Shown: positions 9,202 to 21,270 of the stretch, in pieces | Numbering within the stretch: the first letter of the stretch is position 1 | Layout of the letters: the number at the start of each line of letters is the position of its first letter | From: an uncultured Acidobacteriota bacterium | GTDB taxonomy: Bacteria > Acidobacteriota > Vicinamibacteria > Fen-336 | Reading direction: 5' to 3' | Assembly: GCA_963831755.1 (NCBI GenBank) | Contig: CAWHRC010000009.1 | Span: 793,241-857,240, forward strand | DNA length: 64,000 bases | Notes under the pieces: model-generated | What the model was told of the DNA's origin: nothing | The model's input: only the letters and a program-made list of their open reading frames with translations | The model's database searches: none | Position numbers and translations under genes: made by a program

Positions 9202-9275
9202 GGAGGCCGGAACCTATAGTGGAGAATAGAGGTTCGGCGGGGGCCCCGCAAACAGCCGCACACGAGGGAGATCGA

Positions 9276-10145
9276 ATGTCAGGGCTGGCGTTGGCAGTGT
9301 TCCTCCTCGCGCAGCCGGCACCGGCGGCGGCGCCGGGGACCGAGGTCCGCGCGTTGACGGTGAGCTTTCTCGACGAGCAGGGCGGGGAGGTGGCCGACCT
9401 CGGGCCGGCCGACGTGGCCCTCACCGAGAACGGCGTCGCGCGAGAGATCACCTCGTTCAAGCCGGACCGGCGGCCGCTGTCGGTGGCGGTGATCGTGGAC
9501 TCGAGCGCGGCGGTCGGGTCGGCGTACCGCCTCAACGTCGTGGAGGCCGTGAGCGGCCTGATCACCCGCCTGCCCGACGGCGCGCGCTACGCCGTGTGGA
9601 CGAGCGGCGACCGGCCCTTCAAGCTCGTGGACTTCACCGACGATCGCCAGGCGGCCGGCAAGGCCCTGCGCCTCGTCTCGCCTCAGGGCGGCAACTACAT
9701 GCTCGACGCTCTCTCCGAGGCGGCCAGCGACCTCAAGAAGCTCGCCCGGGAGGGCGACCGCAGCGTGGTGGTGGCGATCACCTTCACCGGCCCGGAGTTC
9801 AGCTACCGGGACAAGTACCGCGCCACCGAGGAGGCGCAAAAGGGCGCGGAGCTGTTCGTCGCGGTCCAGGTCGACGACAGCGAGGCGGACTTCGACACCC
9901 GCTCGAACCTCGGCTACACGCTCGACCGGCTGGCGGCGGCGAGCGGAGGCCGCTACGAGGTGATCCTCTCGCCGATGGGGCTGGACGGCGCGCTGCGCAA
10001 GGCCTCGGCTACGCTCAGGGCGGGCTATCGCGTCGCCTACGCGACCGTGCCCGACCTCAAGCGGCGCAAGCTGGAGCTGACCGTGGCCCGGCCGAAGACG
10101 AAGGTCCTGCTGCCCGCCGGCACGAGCCCGGCGCCCCGCTCGTGA
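9276..10145 (+). CDS. VWA domain protein (TIGR03436 'VWFA-related Acidobacterial' type), secreted
   Basis: ATG 9276 is preceded by GAGGGAG. It has a signal peptide, then SFLDEQGGEV..L...DVALTENGVAREITSF...LSVAVIVDSS, the family-typical opening. It is paralogous to the next gene. Confidence 0.7.
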   Translation: MSGLALAVFLLAQPAPAAAPGTEVRALTVSFLDEQGGEVADLGPADVALTENGVAREITSFKPDRRPLSVAVIVDSSAAVGSAYRLNVVEAVSGLITRLPDGARYAVWTSGDRPFKLVDFTDDRQAAGKALRLVSPQGGNYMLDALSEAASDLKKLAREGDRSVVVAITFTGPEFSYRDKYRATEEAQKGAELFVAVQVDDSEADFDTRSNLGYTLDRLAAASGGRYEVILSPMGLDGALRKASATLRAGYRVAYATVPDLKRRKLELTVARPKTKVLLPAGTSPAPRS

Positions 10146-11071
10146 GGGCCCTCGTCCTGCCGCTGGCGCTGGGCGCGGTCCTGGCCGCGCCCGCGCCGGC
10201 GCAGCCGCAGGCCCGGACACAGCCCCCGACCTTCGGCACGGGCATCGAGATCATCAACCTCAGCCTCTCGGTCACCGACGCTCGCAACAACTTCGTGACC
10301 GACCTCGGCGAGAAGGACTTCGCCGTGTACGAGGACGGGATCCGGCAGGATCTGAGCCTGTTCACCCACGAGAACCTGCCGATCTCGCTGGTGCTGATGA
10401 TCGACACGTCCGCGTCGATGGAGGAGAAGCTCGCCACCGCGCAGGCGGCGGCGATCCGCTTCACGAAGACGCTGCGCCCGCAGGACCTCGCACAGGTCGT
10501 GCAGTTCAACGACCGCTCGACGACGCTGCAGCCCTTCACCAACGACCAGGCGGCGCTCGAGGCGGCGATCCGCCGGACGGAGGCCTCCGGCCCGACCGCG
10601 TTGCACAACTCGCTCTACGTCGCGATCAAGGACCTGATGAGGGACAAGAAGGCGGCCGAGCTGCGCCGGCGGGCGATCGTGCTGCTCTCGGACGGCGAGG
10701 ACACCGCCTCGCTGGTGACCGACGACCAGGTGCTGGAGCTGGCACGCAAGAGCGAGATCAACATCTACGCGATCAGCCTGCGCGCCAACCGACCGCAGGA
10801 CCGCGAGCGCCAGGCCTTCAGCCAGGCCGAGTACCTGATCAACGCGCTCACCCGGGACACCGGCGGCCGCGCGTACTTCCCGACCTCGCTCGGGGAGCTC
10901 GACTCGGTCTACGACCGCATCGCCGAGGAGCTGCGCACGCTCTACAGCGTCGGCTACGTCTCGTCCAACGGCCGGCGGGACGGCAAGTGGCGGCGCATCG
11001 TCGTGCGCGTGGCGGACCGTGAAGGCCTCACGATCCGCCACAAGCTCGGCTACTACGCTCCCGCGAGCTGA
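10142..11071 (+). CDS. VWA domain protein (TIGR03436 type), secreted
   Basis: The GTG at 10142 overlaps the upstream TGA (a GTGA overlap). FGTGIEIINLSLSVTDARNNFVTDLGEKDFAVYEDGIRQDLSLF...ISLVLMIDTSASM...RRAIVLLSDGEDT contains a DxSxS MIDAS motif. Confidence 0.8.
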   Translation: MRALVLPLALGAVLAAPAPAQPQARTQPPTFGTGIEIINLSLSVTDARNNFVTDLGEKDFAVYEDGIRQDLSLFTHENLPISLVLMIDTSASMEEKLATAQAAAIRFTKTLRPQDLAQVVQFNDRSTTLQPFTNDQAALEAAIRRTEASGPTALHNSLYVAIKDLMRDKKAAELRRRAIVLLSDGEDTASLVTDDQVLELARKSEINIYAISLRANRPQDRERQAFSQAEYLINALTRDTGGRAYFPTSLGELDSVYDRIAEELRTLYSVGYVSSNGRRDGKWRRIVVRVADREGLTIRHKLGYYAPAS

Positions 11072-11239
11072 CTTGTCCTGGGTGGTGCTGCGCCGCCCCC
11101 CTCAGACTCCCCGCTCGCTCCGGCGAAGTGAATTCGCCTGCGCTCGCAGCCCGTTGCCTGTCAGCCGTGCTGTGTCGCACTCCCCAGACCCCCCCTCCGC
11201 TTCGCGGGAATGACGCCCGAGCGTCAGCGAGGCCGAGAG

Positions 11240-11271
11240 CCCGGACTCTGCACCGTTGTGCGGAGTCCGGG
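11240..11271. terminator. strong GC hairpin between convergent genes (candidate bidirectional terminator)
   Basis: CCCGGACTC-t-GCAC-cgtt-GTGC-g-GAGTCCGGG forms 9+4 bp of stem. It lies between the VWA stop (11071) and the Tyr/Gly-rich gene stop (11326). There is no U-tract. Confidence 0.4.
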
Positions 11272-11325
11272 GTCAATCCCGCTCCGCTCCGAGCTCGTGG
11301 CCTGATGGCCGTGCCTCGCTCGCCG

Positions 11326-11772
11326 TCAGAATCGGAAGAAGATGCGGATCCGGGGCCGCGGGCGGTAGTAGCGGCGCGGCGGCGGTGGGGGCGGGTACGG
11401 GTAGTAGCCATAGCCGTAGCCGTAGCCGTCGTAGCCGTAGTCGTAGTATCCGTAGTCGTAGTACGGGTAGGCGTAGTAGCCGCCGTAACCGTAGCTACGG
11501 CCGTATCCACGAGTGCCACGGCCGTAACGGCTTCCATAGTTGCGGCTGCTGCCGTAATACGGGGCGGATCTGGAGTACCCCCGGTTGGAGTAGCCCCGGT
11601 TCGAATAGCCTCGGTTCGAATAGCCTCGGTTGGAGTAATCCCGGCTGGAGTAGCCCCGGCTGGAATAGCGATGGCCGTCCCGCTGGTTCCCGGCCTCGAC
11701 GGGCACCGGTGCGGCGAGTGCGACAGTGGCGAGCGCGAGGACCGGAGTGAGGGCGAAGGCGAGAGCTTTCAT
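11326..11772 (-). CDS. secreted Tyr/Gly/Arg/Ser low-complexity repeat protein
   Basis: ATG 11772 is preceded by GGGAGG. The signal peptide is MKALAFALTPVLALATVALAAPVPVEA. The mature part is built almost only from Y, G, R, S, N, D and P: six tandem S(S/N)R(G/D)Y pentapeptides, then a YG/YY/DY region, PPPPPP, and ...RIRIFFRF at the end. Confidence 0.7.
   Translation of the reverse strand: MKALAFALTPVLALATVALAAPVPVEAGNQRDGHRYSSRGYSSRDYSNRGYSNRGYSNRGYSNRGYSRSAPYYGSSRNYGSRYGRGTRGYGRSYGYGGYYAYPYYDYGYYDYGYDGYGYGYGYYPYPPPPPPRRYYRPRPRIRIFFRF
11575..11664 (-). repeat. six tandem 15-nt units encoding the pentapeptide S-(S/N)-R-(G/D)-Y
   Basis: Residues 37-66 of the protein read SSRGY SSRDY SNRGY SNRGY SNRGY SNRGY. 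The DNA shows the matching ...gtagccccggtt / gaatagcctcggtt... periodicity. Confidence 0.8.
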
Positions 11773-11915
11773 GCGAGACCTCCCGATACGTCTCGAGGAC
11801 TGAAGAAGCAAGTGGCGTTCCAACGCCCGTGACCTAGGCGTTCAACGACTTAGCGCCGGACGGGCCCTGCGGCCGTCCCCGGTGGACGAGGAAGCTGTCG
11901 CATCCTTGTGACGCT

Positions 11916-12344
11916 TCAGTCCACCCACACCCGAACCGTCGCGTCCTCGTCGTCGACCTCGACCAGGCTCTGGCCGGCGTCGAGCGAGCGCAGGACCTCG
12001 CCGATCGTCGGGCCGCGGCCCTTCGCACCGCGGTGGCACACGGGCAGCGGCCAGTCGTCGGCAAAGGCGCGGACGATGCCGAGCGGCAGGTTGAGGGACA
12101 CCCGCGACCCCTTGCCGGTCTTGTCGACGACGCGCAGGCGGAACCATTTCGGCTCGGCGCCGCGCCGCCGGGCCGGGGCGGGTTCCTCTTCGGCTGCGGG
12201 GCGGGCCGTCGCCTGCTCCGCCGCCCGGGTCGGGGCGGCCGCCACCGCCCTCTTCACCGCGGCCAGGTCGTCGTCGGCGCGGTCGGCGGCAGCCGGCGCG
12301 GCCAGCGCCAGGGCGACCACAGCTGCGTACAGCGTCGTCTTCAT
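11916..12344 (-). CDS. small secreted protein carrying an uncharacterised C-terminal domain that is paralogous to the upstream gene's C-terminus
   Basis: ATG 12344 is preceded by AGGAGG and followed by a signal peptide. The C-terminal WFRLRVVDKTGKGSRVSLNLPLGIV...LVEVDDEDATVRVWVD aligns with WIRVRIYEKGEARARVSVNLPVGLA...ILTIEGDGGERVQVWIE of ORF 12370..13212. Confidence 0.65.
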   Translation of the reverse strand: MKTTLYAAVVALALAAPAAADRADDDLAAVKRAVAAAPTRAAEQATARPAAEEEPAPARRRGAEPKWFRLRVVDKTGKGSRVSLNLPLGIVRAFADDWPLPVCHRGAKGRGPTIGEVLRSLDAGQSLVEVDDEDATVRVWVD

Positions 12345-12369
12345 GGCCTCTCCTCCTGCTCCCTTCTCG

Positions 12370-13212
12370 CTACTCGATCCACACCTGCACGCGCTCGCCC
12401 CCGTCCCCCTCGATCGTGAGGATGTCGGTGGGCCCCGTGTGCTTCAGGCGCTCCCAGAAGCTGCCGGCGTCGTAGCCCTTCCTGCGCAGCTCGGCCCGCG
12501 TCTCGTCGGGCAGGCTCTTGAACAGCAGCTCGGCGAGCCCCACCGGCAGGTTGACCGAGACGCGCGCCCGCGCCTCGCCCTTCTCGTAGATGCGCACGCG
12601 GATCCAGCTCGCCTGGCGCGCGGGGTGGCGCGGCACGGGCGAGGGCACGGCCTTCGTGAGCGCCGAGGGGTCGACGCGCAGCAGCGCGAGCTTCGCCCGT
12701 TCGACGAGGTCCTCGTCCTTCTCGTGCGCCAGGATGTCCTTCAGCACGGGCACGGCCGGCCGGCCGGCCTCGGGGCCGAGTGTCGCGAGACGGAGGGCGG
12801 CGAAGTAGCGCACCGTGCGGCTCGGGTCCGCGAGCGCGTCGCGCGCGAGGCCCAGGTGCGACGGCTTGCCGGCCCTGGAGAGCTTGACCGCCAGCTCGAC
12901 ACGGCTCGTGCGCGCCTCCTCCGCCAGCGTGCGGTCGGCCGGGCGGGACGACAGGAACTCCCCGTACTCGCCGAGCGCCCGCTCGCTCTCGCCCAGGTTC
13001 TCGCTGCAGCGCGCGATCCAGTAGAGCGCGGCCTGCGCGTCGGCGCCGCCGCCCGAGCTGCGGATCGCCTGCCAGGCCTGCCGCGCCTGCGCGTACTCGC
13101 GGTCGAAGAACAGCGCCTTCGCCGTGCGCAGCCGCTCCGCGTCCACCTGTGGCCGGGCCGCCGCGGGCAGCAGCAGCGCCACCAGCGCGAGCGCCAGGGA
13201 TCGTGCCCTCAT
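12370..13212 (-). CDS. secreted TPR/HEAT-repeat protein with the same uncharacterised C-terminal domain
   Basis: It has a signal peptide, a TPR-like YAQARQAWQAI...ALYWIARCSENLG segment, a HEAT-like RTVRYFAALRLATLGPEAGRPAVPVLKDILAHEKDEDLVERAKLALL segment, and the C-terminal domain shared with 11916..12344. Its start ATGA-overlaps the anti-sigma stop. Confidence 0.65.
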   Translation of the reverse strand: MRARSLALALVALLLPAAARPQVDAERLRTAKALFFDREYAQARQAWQAIRSSGGGADAQAALYWIARCSENLGESERALGEYGEFLSSRPADRTLAEEARTSRVELAVKLSRAGKPSHLGLARDALADPSRTVRYFAALRLATLGPEAGRPAVPVLKDILAHEKDEDLVERAKLALLRVDPSALTKAVPSPVPRHPARQASWIRVRIYEKGEARARVSVNLPVGLAELLFKSLPDETRAELRRKGYDAGSFWERLKHTGPTDILTIEGDGGERVQVWIE

Positions 13213-13994
13213 CCTTCCAGCTCCCGTGTCATCAGTCGGATCCGCATCAGCAGCTGCCGCCTCTCGACCTGCGCCCGGACCCGCTCCACGTCACGGCGCC
13301 TCACGCACGAGGGCAGCTCGGCCACCTCGCGCAGCGCCTGCTCCACGTCGTCGAGCACGCCCTGCGCGCTCGCCACCGCCTGGCCGCCCGATTCGAGCAC
13401 CAGCTGCCGCCGCTCGAGCAGCTCGCGGCTGCGCTCGGGCGCCTCGCCGACGTCGAGCCGGTCGTCGCGCCGGTCGCAGTCGAGCCCGGTCGCCGACACC
13501 GAGACGAGCAGCGCGCTCGCCTCGTTCAGGTAGCGGGCGGCGTGCTCGCGGGCCACGTTCCTCTCGATCCGGGCGAGCGTGTCCTCCGCCACCTGGGGCG
13601 GGGCTTCGAGCGGCGGGATCGCCGCCCGCACCGGCAGCGCGGACGGCCTGAACCGCTCGACCAGGCGCGGCACGAGCACGGCCGCCGCGAGCGTCGCGGC
13701 CGCCACCGGCAGCGCCACCAGCCACCAGCGGGGCTTGCCGCGCGGGGAGACGAGCGCTCTCTCCAGCTCGCGCTCGACGCGCGAGACCAGCACGGCCACG
13801 GGCAGCTCCGGCTCCGCCTCGCGCAGCGGATCGGCCTCGAGCTCCCGGACGAGCGCGCTCAGCTGGGCGTGCTCGGCCCGGCAGCGGGCGCAGCGCTCCA
13901 GGTGCGCGAGCGTCTCGTCGCGCTCGCGGCCCTCGAGCACGCCCGCGGCCAGCAGGCTGACGCGCCGGCGCAGCCGCAGGTGGCCGAGCGTCAC
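13209..13994 (-). CDS. anti-sigma factor (zf-HC2 type, single-pass membrane)
   Basis: The N-terminal HLERCARCRAEH matches the H-x3-C-x2-C zinc motif. There is a TM segment (WWLVALPVAAATLAAAVLV) and a periplasmic C-terminal region. The start overlaps the sigma stop (GTGA). Confidence 0.75.
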   Translation of the reverse strand: MTLGHLRLRRRVSLLAAGVLEGRERDETLAHLERCARCRAEHAQLSALVRELEADPLREAEPELPVAVLVSRVERELERALVSPRGKPRWWLVALPVAAATLAAAVLVPRLVERFRPSALPVRAAIPPLEAPPQVAEDTLARIERNVAREHAARYLNEASALLVSVSATGLDCDRRDDRLDVGEAPERSRELLERRQLVLESGGQAVASAQGVLDDVEQALREVAELPSCVRRRDVERVRAQVERRQLLMRIRLMTRELEG

Positions 13995-14569
13995 GGCCGT
14001 CCCTCCCCGGCGAGCCCGCCCCGCAGGCGGTGCAGCGCCCGGTGCAGGCTGCTCTTGACGGTTCCCAGGCTGATGCCGAGGGTGCCCGCGATCTCCTCGA
14101 GGCTCAGGTCCTGGTAGTGGCGGAGGAGCACGACGGCGCGCTGCCGCTCCGGCAGCGTGGCGAGCGCGGCGCGCAGGCGCTCGCGCGCCTCGCGCCCCGC
14201 GAGCGGGCGCTCGGGGCCGTCGTCGCTCCGGCCGAGCGAGGGGTCATGGTCGCCCTCCGGGAGCGGCGCGAAGGTCCGCAGCCGGCGCTGGTTGCGCCGC
14301 CAGCGGTCGATCGAGAGGTTCACGGCGATCCGCCCGAGCCACGGCGCCGCGGCGGCCGAGCCGTCCCAGCGCCCCGCGTTGCGGTACGCCTTCACGAAGC
14401 ACTCCTGCACGACGTCGAGCGCGTCGTCGGGCTGGCGCAGGTAGGAGAGGGCGATCCGGTAGAGCCGGCGGTAGTGCCGCTGCATGAGCGGCGCGAGGGC
14501 CTCGCGGTCGCCGGCCGCCAGCCGCGCCATGAGCTCACGATCACCCTCGTCCCCCCGGGACGGCTCCAT
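13991..14569 (-). CDS. ECF-type RNA polymerase sigma-70 factor
   Basis: Region 2 is LYRIALSYLRQPDDALDVVQECFVKAY...WLGRIAVNLSIDRWRR. Region 4 is LPERQRAVVLLRHYQDLSLEEIAGTLGISLGTVKSSLHRA. ATG 14569 gives 192 aa; the alternative GTG is at 14614. Confidence 0.85.
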   Translation of the reverse strand: MEPSRGDEGDRELMARLAAGDREALAPLMQRHYRRLYRIALSYLRQPDDALDVVQECFVKAYRNAGRWDGSAAAAPWLGRIAVNLSIDRWRRNQRRLRTFAPLPEGDHDPSLGRSDDGPERPLAGREARERLRAALATLPERQRAVVLLRHYQDLSLEEIAGTLGISLGTVKSSLHRALHRLRGGLAGEGRP

Positions 14570-14733
14570 CCGCCGAGTGCCCTCTCCTGCCGCGCCGGCC
14601 TGCCATTGGACCACGGCGACACCTGCCCGCCTAGCCGAGCCAGACGAGCGCCGGGTCGCCAGCCTCCTGTCTCATTCCGCCCTTTGCCTCCGATCTCGTA
14701 ACGCGCGAGCCAGCGCCCCGGTTCCCCGCCTCG

Positions 14734-19731: not shown

Positions 19732-21270
19732 ATGCCGCGCGTGACCGCGCGGACCGACCCCCGCCAGCTCTCCGACCTGCTCGAGCTCAGCCAGACCCTC
19801 GGCGCCACCCTGAACCTGCGGACCGCGCTGCAGCGGGTGCTGGCGATGCTCGAGGAGAGCCACGGCACGCTGTCGGGCGTGATCGTGCTGCGCGAGGGCG
19901 AAACGGGCGAGCTGGCGGTCGAGGCGGCCAGCGGGGCGGGGGCGGGCGCCCAGAAGACCCGCTACCGCCTCGGCGAGGGCATCGTCGGCCGCGTGGTGCA
20001 GAGCGGCCGGCCGATCGTGGTGCCCCAGGTCAGCCGCGAGCCGCTGTTCCTCGACCGCTCCGGCGTCTTCCGCCGCTCCGGCCGCGACGAGATGTCCTAC
20101 GTCTGCGTGCCGGTCCGCGTCGAGCACCGCACCACGGGCGCGCTCGGGGTGGCGCTCGCGTACCAGAAGGACCGCAACTACGAGCAGGAGGCCAAGTTCT
20201 TCGGCGTCGTGGCCTCGATGGTCGGGCAGGCCGTGCGCGTGCACCACCTGGTCGAGGCCGAGCGCCGGCGGCTGCTGGAGGAGAACACCAAGCTGCGGCG
20301 CGAGCTGACCGAGCGCTACGACATCCGCAACCTCGTCGGCAGCAGCCGCCCCATGCAGACCGTCTACGAGCAGGTGGCCCAGGTCGCTCCCTCGGGCACG
20401 ACGGTGCTCGTCCGCGGCGAGTCGGGCACCGGCAAGGAGCTCGTCGCGCACGCGATCCACTACTCCTCGCCGCGCGCGAAGAAGCCGTTCGTGAAGGTCA
20501 GCTGCGCCGCGCTGCCGGAGAGCCTGGTGGAGTCGGAGCTGTTCGGCTACGAGCCGGGCGCCTTCACCGACGCGCGCGCGCAGAAGAAGGGCCGCTTCGA
20601 GCTGGCGAACGGCGGCACGATTTTCCTCGACGAGATCGGCGAGCTGACGCCCTCGACCCAGGTGAAGCTGCTACGCGTGCTGCAGGAGCGCGAGTTCGAG
20701 CGCCTGGGCGGCGTGCAGTCGATCAAGGTCAACGTGCGCGTGGTGACGGCGACCAACAAGGACCTGGAGCAGGCGGTGAAGGCCGGCACCTTCCGCGAGG
20801 ACCTCTACTACCGGCTCAACGTCTACCCGATCTACCTGCCGCCGCTGCGCGAGCGCAAGACCGACATCCCGCTGCTGGCCGACCACTTCATCGACAAGCA
20901 CGCCGCGGCGCACGGCAAGGACGTGCGCCGGATCGCCACCTCGGCGATCGACATGCTGATGAGCTACCACTGGCCCGGCAACGTGCGCGAGCTCGAGAAC
21001 TGCCTCGAGCGCGCGGTCGTGGTCTGCGACGCGGGCGCGATCCACGCCCACCACCTGCCGCCCACGCTGCAGACGGCCGAGGTGTCGGGCACGCAGCCCC
21101 GGCAGTCGCTGAAGGAGGCCGTGGACGCCTACGAGAAGGACCTGGTGCAGGACGCGCTCAAGAGCGCGCGCGGCAACCGCGCCAAGGCGGCGCGCCTGCT
21201 GCACACCACCGAGCGCATCCTCGGCTACGCCGTGCGCCGGCACCGCATCGACCCCGCGCGCTACCGCTGA
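19732..21270 (+). CDS. sigma-54-dependent transcriptional activator, GAF-AAA+-HTH (NifA-like architecture)
   Basis: An N-terminal GAF domain is followed by Walker A GESGTGKE, a loop reading [15 protein letters not shown] (a variant of GAFTGA), Walker [27 protein letters not shown] and a C-terminal Fis-type HTH ([17 protein letters not shown]). Confidence 0.85.

Follow-up and report, generated by a model that had tools for sequence, protein, structure and literature searches.

The window analysed here, a 64-kb stretch of DNA (contig CAWHRC010000009.1) from an uncultured Acidobacteriota bacterium, carries at 11326-11772 of its minus strand a real, selected gene for a small exported protein dominated by tyrosine (Tyr), glycine (Gly) and arginine (Arg), referred to below as the Tyr-rich protein. 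This protein belongs to an undescribed family that sampling has so far located in just one taxonomic family of Acidobacteriota, and whose members end in a short module resembling the beta-signal of outer-membrane proteins (OMPs). The gene lies after a conserved cluster with an extracytoplasmic function (ECF) sigma factor and has a conserved sigma-54-type promoter of its own. The function that we infer from its sequence, and to which we assign a probability of about 0.5, is that of an exported, sticky, polycationic coating or cohesive layer of the envelope or matrix, targeted by the beta-signal-like strand.

The gene and the parts of its product are as follows.
11326..11772, minus strand: coding sequence, stop codon included, of the 148-residue Tyr/Gly/Arg-rich exported protein.
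11779..11784, minus strand: Shine-Dalgarno site GGGAGG, 6 nt before the ATG, with GGAGG kept in the intergenic alignment.
11692..11772, minus strand: Sec-type signal peptide, residues 1-27 (MKALAFALTPVLALATVALAAPVPVEA), assigned from the family alignment and a helix at residues 9-20 of the AlphaFold2 model.
11571..11669, minus strand: 15-bp tandem repeat, 6.6 copies at 84% matches in Tandem Repeats Finder, encoding pentapeptides (Y)S(S/N)R(G/D).
11401..11482, minus strand: YG/YY/DY block (GYYAYPYYDYGYYDYGYDGYGYGYGYY), with Tandem Repeats Finder periodicities of 6, 15 and 21 bp.
11329..11394, minus strand: C-terminal module made up of PPPPPP, a basic RRYYRPRPR and an amphipathic strand IRIFFRF, assigned from the family alignment and a 60-member logo.

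Translation of this frame gives exactly the protein of a preliminary description of the window made from its sequence, and agrees with its count of 32 Tyr; the 148 residues further comprise 22 Gly, 21 Arg, 14 Ser, 14 Pro and a single His. At 21.6%, compared to a 99.9th percentile of 7.2% among the 7370 open reading frames (ORFs) of the genome with high G+C content at third codon positions (GC3), the Tyr content is a genome-wide extreme, far beyond chance. GC3 in the Tyr-rich frame is 0.81 (0.92-0.98 in neighbouring genes), against 0.59 for 11128-11832 and 0.60 for 11256-11750 on the opposite strand, and these two ORFs, which the preliminary description had named as possible real genes, are therefore ruled out as such. 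The closest relative, L038 on a 935-bp Logan contig, differs from the window copy at 16 synonymous and 16 non-synonymous codons among the 128 aligned, and all indels between the two are multiples of 3, so the Tyr-rich protein is evidently under purifying selection. Full-length homologues have an open frame in all related loci, and the conservation of the frame in related genomes, on which the preliminary description had made its proposal depend, is thus confirmed.

The Sec signal that had been proposed is borne out by the family alignment, in which M1, P10, L12, L14 and A15 of the consensus MKAxALVPALALAA... are invariant, and by the predicted helix; the window copy has no lipobox Cys and no twin-Arg motif. 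Cleavage is more likely after VEA27 than after residue 20, because an A-[ED]-A site near residue 27 is conserved across the family alignment. The mature part is then 121 residues long and lacks K, L, V, M, C, W and E, just as the preliminary description had it, a statement that fails with a 20-residue signal, which leaves two Val and one Glu. The six S(S/N)R(G/D)Y units highlighted in the same description are real and correspond to the 15-bp repeat, but they are not a family feature: L038 is without 15 codons of the pentapeptide array, that is, it has three units fewer, and the SNRGY array is a recent, lineage-specific slippage expansion. The reported YG/YY/DY block was also recovered by Tandem Repeats Finder, and its YGYGYY core directly before the poly-Pro is kept across the family. 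After PPPPPP the window protein ends in RRYYRPRPRIRIFFRF. AlphaFold2, run on a 26-row alignment, returned a mean predicted local distance difference test (pLDDT) of 50 and a predicted template modelling score of 0.17, with the signal-peptide helix as the only secondary structure, a model unsuited to fold comparison, and a profile search of Protein Data Bank (PDB) sequences gave only poly-Pro and low-complexity noise at E 0.06 or worse. The mature protein is thus predicted to be intrinsically disordered, and its charge is strongly cationic.

Scans against Pfam-A and NCBIfam gave no match for the window protein and two relatives, and assigned no significant family to ten distant look-alikes. A search of 5.8 billion proteins yielded 27 relatives of 111-183 residues, all of which except P0013, with its diverged tail, share one architecture: a near-identical signal peptide, a variable Arg/His/Gly/Tyr/Ser stretch, the YGYGYY core, five to seven Pro, and RY(Y/C)-RPRPR-VGIWFGF at the end. 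Among 1.84 billion cluster representatives, a search with the family profile returned only 71 proteins at E <= 1e-3. Over 60 members (mature length 74-133 residues, net charge +4 to +18), the mature part averages 22.7% Tyr, 18.2% Gly, 14.6% Arg, 12.2% Pro, 6.3% Ser, 5.6% His and 0.1% Lys, and HRH, HGY and DY motifs occur in many of them. What selection keeps is the signal peptide, a composition of Tyr, Gly, Arg, Pro, His and Ser with Arg over Lys, and the C-terminal module; the middle part is free in sequence and length, and repeat slippage lengthens or shortens it.

Two named genome records carry relatives, both of them Acidobacteriota metagenome-assembled genomes. In a class sample of 401 genomes the profile was positive in 22 of the 58 belonging to the same taxonomic family and in none of the 343 from 23 other families, figures from a search that undercounts, as it scores only ten candidates per genome. 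Direct inspection of ORFs downstream of the neighbouring gene p142 (described below) identified a Tyr-rich ORF with an aromatic end in 25 of 30 genomes; all these taxon counts come from samples of related genomes and so are not counts of independent events. Beside the 25, G015 and G016, from the same genus, have a Tyr-rich copy split over two frames (C16:415054-415245, L033, in G015; C31:142724-143103, L020/L035, in G016), a split that may reflect a frameshift within the low-complexity part, a repeat that was wrongly assembled, or a pseudogene.

Variation within the family also affects its end. In many members a single Cys stands 12-13 residues before the C-terminus (RYCPPRPR...), at a position that is Tyr in the window copy. 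A divergent member, L029 (G143 C34:24985-25293), has a Cys-rich tail (...CRCSRGRCYGSCRCCRPVVSCGPRGPRCRCRPRASVRIAW) and stands alone, in a genome without a p142 match and with no HEAT/TPR gene adjoining, while keeping a TGGAACG-N4-TTGCT promoter.

What is most constant in the family is its C-terminus. Barrel proteins of the outer membrane engage BamA and BamD through a beta-signal with the motif GxxΦxΦ (PMC13067283). The family end matches it with a terminal aromatic residue: its consensus is RPRPR-[VI]-G-[IFL]-[FWY]-[FL]-[GR]-F, the last eight positions being [R/G]-[V/I]-G-[I/F/L]-[F/W/Y]-[F/L/I]-[G/R]-F, and the logo has Phe at -1 in 57/60 members, F/L/I at -3 in 60/60 and Gly at -6 in 51/60. 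Variants of this end include ...PRFGIGIYFGF, ...RPHLSIHIGF, ...GSVSVGLPFLGVSLHF and ...RVHISFGFGW. TonB-dependent receptors of the same genome have C-termini in a similar style (...GRSVFANVSVRF, ...PGRSVFANVSVRF, ...LPSLGVRFRF and ...TGRVVRLGIRATF), and the comparison of the tail with an OMP beta-signal in the preliminary description holds on both counts. A barrel of at least eight amphipathic strands was not found: the AlphaFold2 model (pLDDT 50) contains no strands, and the mature part amounts to 74-133 residues of low complexity. Because it has no further amphipathic strands, is too short and is predicted to be disordered, the Tyr-rich protein is not a barrel protein, and its end is best described as a beta-signal-like tag without a barrel.

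A sequence similar to the family's C-terminal strand was also seen in another setting. The second most Tyr-rich ORF of the genome, at 11679-12482 (plus strand) of contig C24 in G000, encodes 267 residues with 12.7% Tyr and consists of a signal peptide, a low-complexity tract of Arg/Gly/Ser and Tyr/Gly/Pro, a linker of acidic character and, at the C-terminus, a PEGA domain (Pfam E = 1.3e-7). The tract holds an internal GRSHFGASIYLGW, which resembles that strand, and its combination with PEGA suggests that a related sticky module is also used as a fusion to a folded surface domain.

The following regulatory elements, and a candidate regulator, were noted in the window.
11807..11822, minus strand: sigma-54-type promoter TGGAACGCCACTTGCT (GG-N10-GC), 35 nt before the ATG.
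11840..11852, minus strand: putative block TAAGTCGTTGAAC like an integration host factor (IHF) site, ~20-30 nt upstream of the -24 element.
11871..11901, minus strand: upstream block GCGACA-N5-6-TGYSC ... GCGACGCC, recognized by eye in 20 or more loci.
14699..14726, minus strand: ECF-type promoter GGGAACC-N16-GCGTTA of the sigma operon, kept in the window and in L008-L012 (six loci).
19732..21270, plus strand: GAF-AAA+-HTH sigma-54 activator with the loop GAFTDA, the candidate activator.

The 143-nt gap before the Tyr-rich gene is poorly conserved save for the Shine-Dalgarno site and the sigma-54-type element, (T/G)GGAAC(G/A)-N4-TTGC(T/A), which has its sole match in the window here and supplies, with GGAACG and TTGC, the only blocks that stay invariant across the intergenic alignment. 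Its distance from the ATG is 36-55 nt in the 23 loci, belonging to several genera, that contain it, and a strict regular expression detected it in 21 of 25 genomes; among the four misses, G074 has the element (its start codon was mis-set) and G166 has it just outside the interval searched. The genome contains rpoN (Sigma54_DBD match, 220 bits) and 38 Sigma54_activat domain matches, about 30 of them strong and one in the window. Of 58 canonical GGCAC-N5-TTGC sites, 41 (71%) fall outside crude gene calls, compared to 18/51 and 12/27 (35-44%) for wrong-spacing controls, and this intergenic excess indicates that sigma-54 promoters are in real use in this genome. Dependence of the Tyr-rich gene on sigma-54 is likely from these sequence features.

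Upstream of the -24 element, (G/C)YAAG-N3-4-TTGA recurs, by eye, in most loci; the IHF consensus is YAANNNNTTGATW, and the block at 11840..11852 resembles such a site. The GCGACA block, roughly 50-80 nt before the -24 element, is placed as an enhancer-binding-protein site would be in classical sigma-54 promoters. The GAF-type activator is a candidate to serve this promoter, by synteny only and within one lineage: in three of five genome handles searched (two being one assembly), orthologues with 85-88% identity and the Tyr-rich gene are ~7-8 kb apart, the activator is beside the cluster also in L011 and L039, and in G003 its orthologue is on another contig. By regular expression its GAFTDA loop, in place of GAFTGA, is the sole one of its kind in the genome (which has nine GAFTGA and four GSFTGA). 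Its putative target promoter, for its part, invariably carries GGAAC for GGCAC at -24.

Other promoters were considered for the Tyr-rich gene. An ECF-type promoter, suggested by the shared GGAAC, was rejected: inspection of the loci found no conserved -10 at 16-17 nt from GGAAC, and TTGC at N5 is invariant. Reading TTGC as a sigma-70 -35 was likewise discarded, as no -10-like hexamer is conserved and no sigma-70 sites were found. A terminator-like hairpin at 11814-11827 was not taken for a terminator, because it coincides in part with the -24 element and other loci do not preserve its sequence. Read-through from p142 into the Tyr-rich gene is possible. GGGAACC-N16-GCGTTA occurs once in the 6.15-Mb genome, upstream of the sigma operon. 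The proposal that the Tyr-rich gene is an ECF-induced last gene of the operon is thus right as to the conserved synteny, but the gene has its own sigma-54-type promoter and the ECF motif is found only upstream of the sigma operon; proximity to such an operon is in this case no sign of ECF control.

The neighbouring cluster, as assigned mainly by Pfam and NCBIfam scans, consists of four genes.
13991..14614, minus strand: ECF sigma factor.
13209..13994, minus strand: zf-HC2 membrane anti-sigma factor.
12370..13212, minus strand: exported 280-residue TPR/HEAT protein with a p142-like C-terminal domain (TPR_6 and HEAT_2 matches below cut-offs).
11916..12344, minus strand: p142, an exported protein of 142 residues and, in its C-terminal domain, a paralogue of the TPR/HEAT protein's C-terminus.

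Sigma, anti-sigma, HEAT/TPR, p142 and Tyr-rich gene follow one another in this order in every locus that reaches far enough, in at least nine genera, and the position after an ECF sigma cluster given in the preliminary description is therefore conserved well beyond the window. Identities are 67-75% for the neighbours (67-73% for TPR/HEAT orthologues) compared to 37-48% for the Tyr-rich protein. p142 is present in 51 of 59 genomes of the taxonomic family. Its C-terminal ~120 residues form the stretch paralogous to the TPR/HEAT protein, and in the AlphaFold2 model of p142 (mean pLDDT 66) this type of domain has the order strand-strand-helix-helix-strand-strand; Foldseek against the PDB gave no fold match (best E = 0.18), and p142 has no Pfam family. 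DUF7942 was rejected for p142, with E = 0.022 in only one of 15 members. Additional p142-type paralogues, matching profile positions 55-139, exist elsewhere in the same genomes. In one genus, represented by G019, the Tyr-rich gene starts 24 nt after the HEAT/TPR gene with no sigma-54 element, an operon-type coupling that speaks for a functional tie between the sigma cluster and the Tyr-rich unit, even if they are usually transcribed apart.

Two further features of the cluster were noted. Between the ECF promoter and the sigma gene, L009, L010 and L012 have an intact gene for a lipoprotein that ends in the p142-HEAT/TPR domain (...GDQVLVWLR), of which the window keeps, at 14631-14675 (minus strand), a 14-codon relic (MRQEAGDPALVWLG*) of a gene for ~130 residues; the cluster would therefore once have had three paralogous exported domains, one of them lost here by internal deletion. 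On the other side, two tandem VWA-domain genes (9219-11071, plus strand) converge on the Tyr-rich gene, an arrangement kept in L010, L012 and L039. By inspection of downstream ORFs only, an apparent VWA gene directly follows p142 in G002 and G014, which have no Tyr-rich gene.

A coating or cohesive layer, the reading we favour, would work as follows. The Tyr-rich protein would be exported to the periplasm and made on demand through sigma-54 and an enhancer-binding protein, for which the syntenic GAF-type activator is the candidate. [quoted passage not shown] The Tyr/Arg/Gly body would act as a multivalent sticky material that, through cation-pi and pi-pi contacts, binds itself and anionic polymers of the envelope. 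The ECF module and its exported proteins would monitor or handle this aggregation-prone client.

Several points weigh against this picture. Composition is the whole basis on which a material or coating function is suggested. The promoter departs by one fixed change, GGAAC for GGCAC, from the sigma-54 consensus TGGCACG-N4-TTGCW. Position -6 of the window copy (RIRIFFRF) is Arg, not Gly, which the nearest relative does have, and a single beta-strand, with no more than a hairpin in some genera, is too little to form a barrel. The link with p142 is not absolute: G143 and G019 carry the Tyr-rich gene but not p142, and G002, G014 and G017 have p142 without a detectable Tyr-rich copy downstream. Finally, a DOPA-type (3,4-dihydroxyphenylalanine) adhesive is not supported, as the 84%-complete genome has no match to the tyrosinase family PF00264, a search in which control genomes gave no match either.

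The alternative that survives best, though it appears unlikely, is that the protein is a beta-signal decoy, or mimic of an unfolded OMP, whose tail engages BamA/BamD or a PDZ protease that cleaves the anti-sigma factor, so that a sigma-54 input would switch on the adjacent ECF sigma. This would account for a C-terminal logo that fits both the beta-signal and the genome's own OMP ends, for the tight and old synteny with an ECF/anti-sigma module, for an ECF promoter unique to its operon of exported p142-type proteins, and for the separate sigma-54-type control of the Tyr-rich gene. In Escherichia coli, C-terminal YxF peptides of OMPs activate DegS and sigma-E. Beta-signal mimics such as darobactin bind BamA beta1 (PMC13067283). 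A signalling tail alone, however, would not need a conserved and extreme Tyr/Arg/Gly body of ~100 residues, the cluster contains no PDZ protease gene, and G143 has the Tyr-rich gene with no p142-type match in the genome and neither HEAT/TPR nor p142 adjoining (sigma and anti-sigma genes were not searched there). A related proposal, rather doubtful as a whole, is that of a natural beta-signal-only protein, a disordered, sticky periplasmic chain whose tail, as a genuine BAM/OMP-type signal, would be its only ordered element: made from a sigma-54 promoter, it would plug into BamA/BamD or a PDZ protease, as an unfolded-OMP mimic tying envelope assembly to a private ECF loop, or would donate its strand and so fasten a layer of Tyr/Arg condensate to the outer membrane.

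It seems improbable that the protein is a periplasmic binder or buffer of metals, phosphate, minerals or polyanions, induced through sigma-54 in the manner of ZraP. Small periplasmic stress proteins driven by sigma-54 are familiar from ZraP in enterobacteria and from PspA; the family averages of 5.6% His, 23% Tyr and 15% Arg, the HRH, HGY and DY motifs of many members and the GAF sensor domain of the candidate activator would all suit such a role. Against it, the single His of the window copy implies that His is not essential, the conserved cluster includes no transporter or metal-resistance gene, and the invariant C-terminal strand is left unexplained. Even harder to sustain is a precursor whose PPPPPP-RY-RPRPR-VGIWFGF end is cut off as a signalling or antimicrobial peptide, with the Tyr-rich part as leader or carrier: the C-terminus is indeed the most conserved part, and RPRPR/PRP motifs with a cationic amphipathic end resemble proline-rich antimicrobial peptides, but the conserved neighbourhood has no protease, modification enzyme, exporter or immunity gene, and the composition of the supposed carrier is itself conserved. 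Lastly, that there is no gene at all, only a chance ORF on a simple repeat or real genes on the plus strand, would fit low-complexity DNA with tandem repeats and long plus-strand ORFs and is refuted by the conservation data, namely a signal peptide and C-terminus kept at the protein level in dozens of genomes, synonymous changes and in-frame indels between homologues, and a conserved Shine-Dalgarno site and promoter, besides the GC3 difference (0.81 versus 0.59-0.60).

The Tyr-rich protein can be set beside several known systems, which it appears to resemble in composition or motif rather than by homology; searches of the literature on Tyr-rich periplasmic proteins, Sgp and ECF sigma factors with HEAT repeats yielded nothing specific. 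Bacterial exported proteins made almost wholly of Tyr, Gly and Arg have barely been studied, and this family offers experimental handles: a short conserved C-terminal module without a barrel, a defined sigma-54-type promoter, and a conserved partner cluster composed of an ECF sigma, an anti-sigma and two or three exported proteins that share an unnamed domain. With the barrel proteins that are substrates of BAM, it has in common the Sec signal, the C-terminal GxxΦxΦ, the terminal Phe and the alternating hydrophobic residues, but it has no barrel, is disordered elsewhere by prediction, is too short, and has one strand or hairpin at most. Should its tail indeed engage BAM or some envelope-stress protease, the protein would act as a natural decoy of the beta-signal and bear on how BAM and sigma-E-type pathways read OMP ends. 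The ZraP and PspA regulons are comparable in pairing a small envelope protein with a -24/-12 promoter and a dedicated activator nearby; here the protein is unrelated, the promoter has the invariant GGAAC variant, and an ECF module stands in place of a two-component system.

Also comparable are the sulfur globule (Sgp) proteins SgpA, SgpB and SgpC of purple sulfur bacteria, which, in work attributed to Brune in 1995 and Pattaragulwanit et al. in 1998, are said to be small, Sec-exported, Gly/Tyr-rich proteins that contain short repeats and to make up a structural layer of the envelope. By that description the Tyr-rich protein is like them in size, export, Gly/Tyr content and short repeats, but differs in phylum and context, its cluster being devoid of sulfur-oxidation genes, and the Pfam and NCBIfam scans linked it to no named family; high Arg, poly-Pro and a beta-signal-like end are not known as traits of Sgp and would set the two apart. 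Outside bacteria, the FUS-type [G/S]Y[G/S] domains with RGG, the mussel proteins Mfp-3 and Mfp-5, the His/Gly/Tyr proteins of squid beak and statherin are similarly small, disordered and composed of ~20-25% Tyr with Gly, Arg, Asn/Ser and Pro. Adhesive examples such as Mfp are also secreted, from which the Tyr-rich protein differs in its bacterial periplasm or envelope setting. It is like FUS-type low-complexity domains in Tyr/Gly/Ser content and predicted disorder; these are largely uncharged, in contrast to a family with 15% Arg and a positive net charge throughout. Arg-Tyr pairs are classical drivers of condensation, and if the body of the Tyr-rich protein does make a cohesive layer, bacteria of a soil phylum that is abundant but poorly cultured would have an equivalent of the Tyr/Arg sticker materials.

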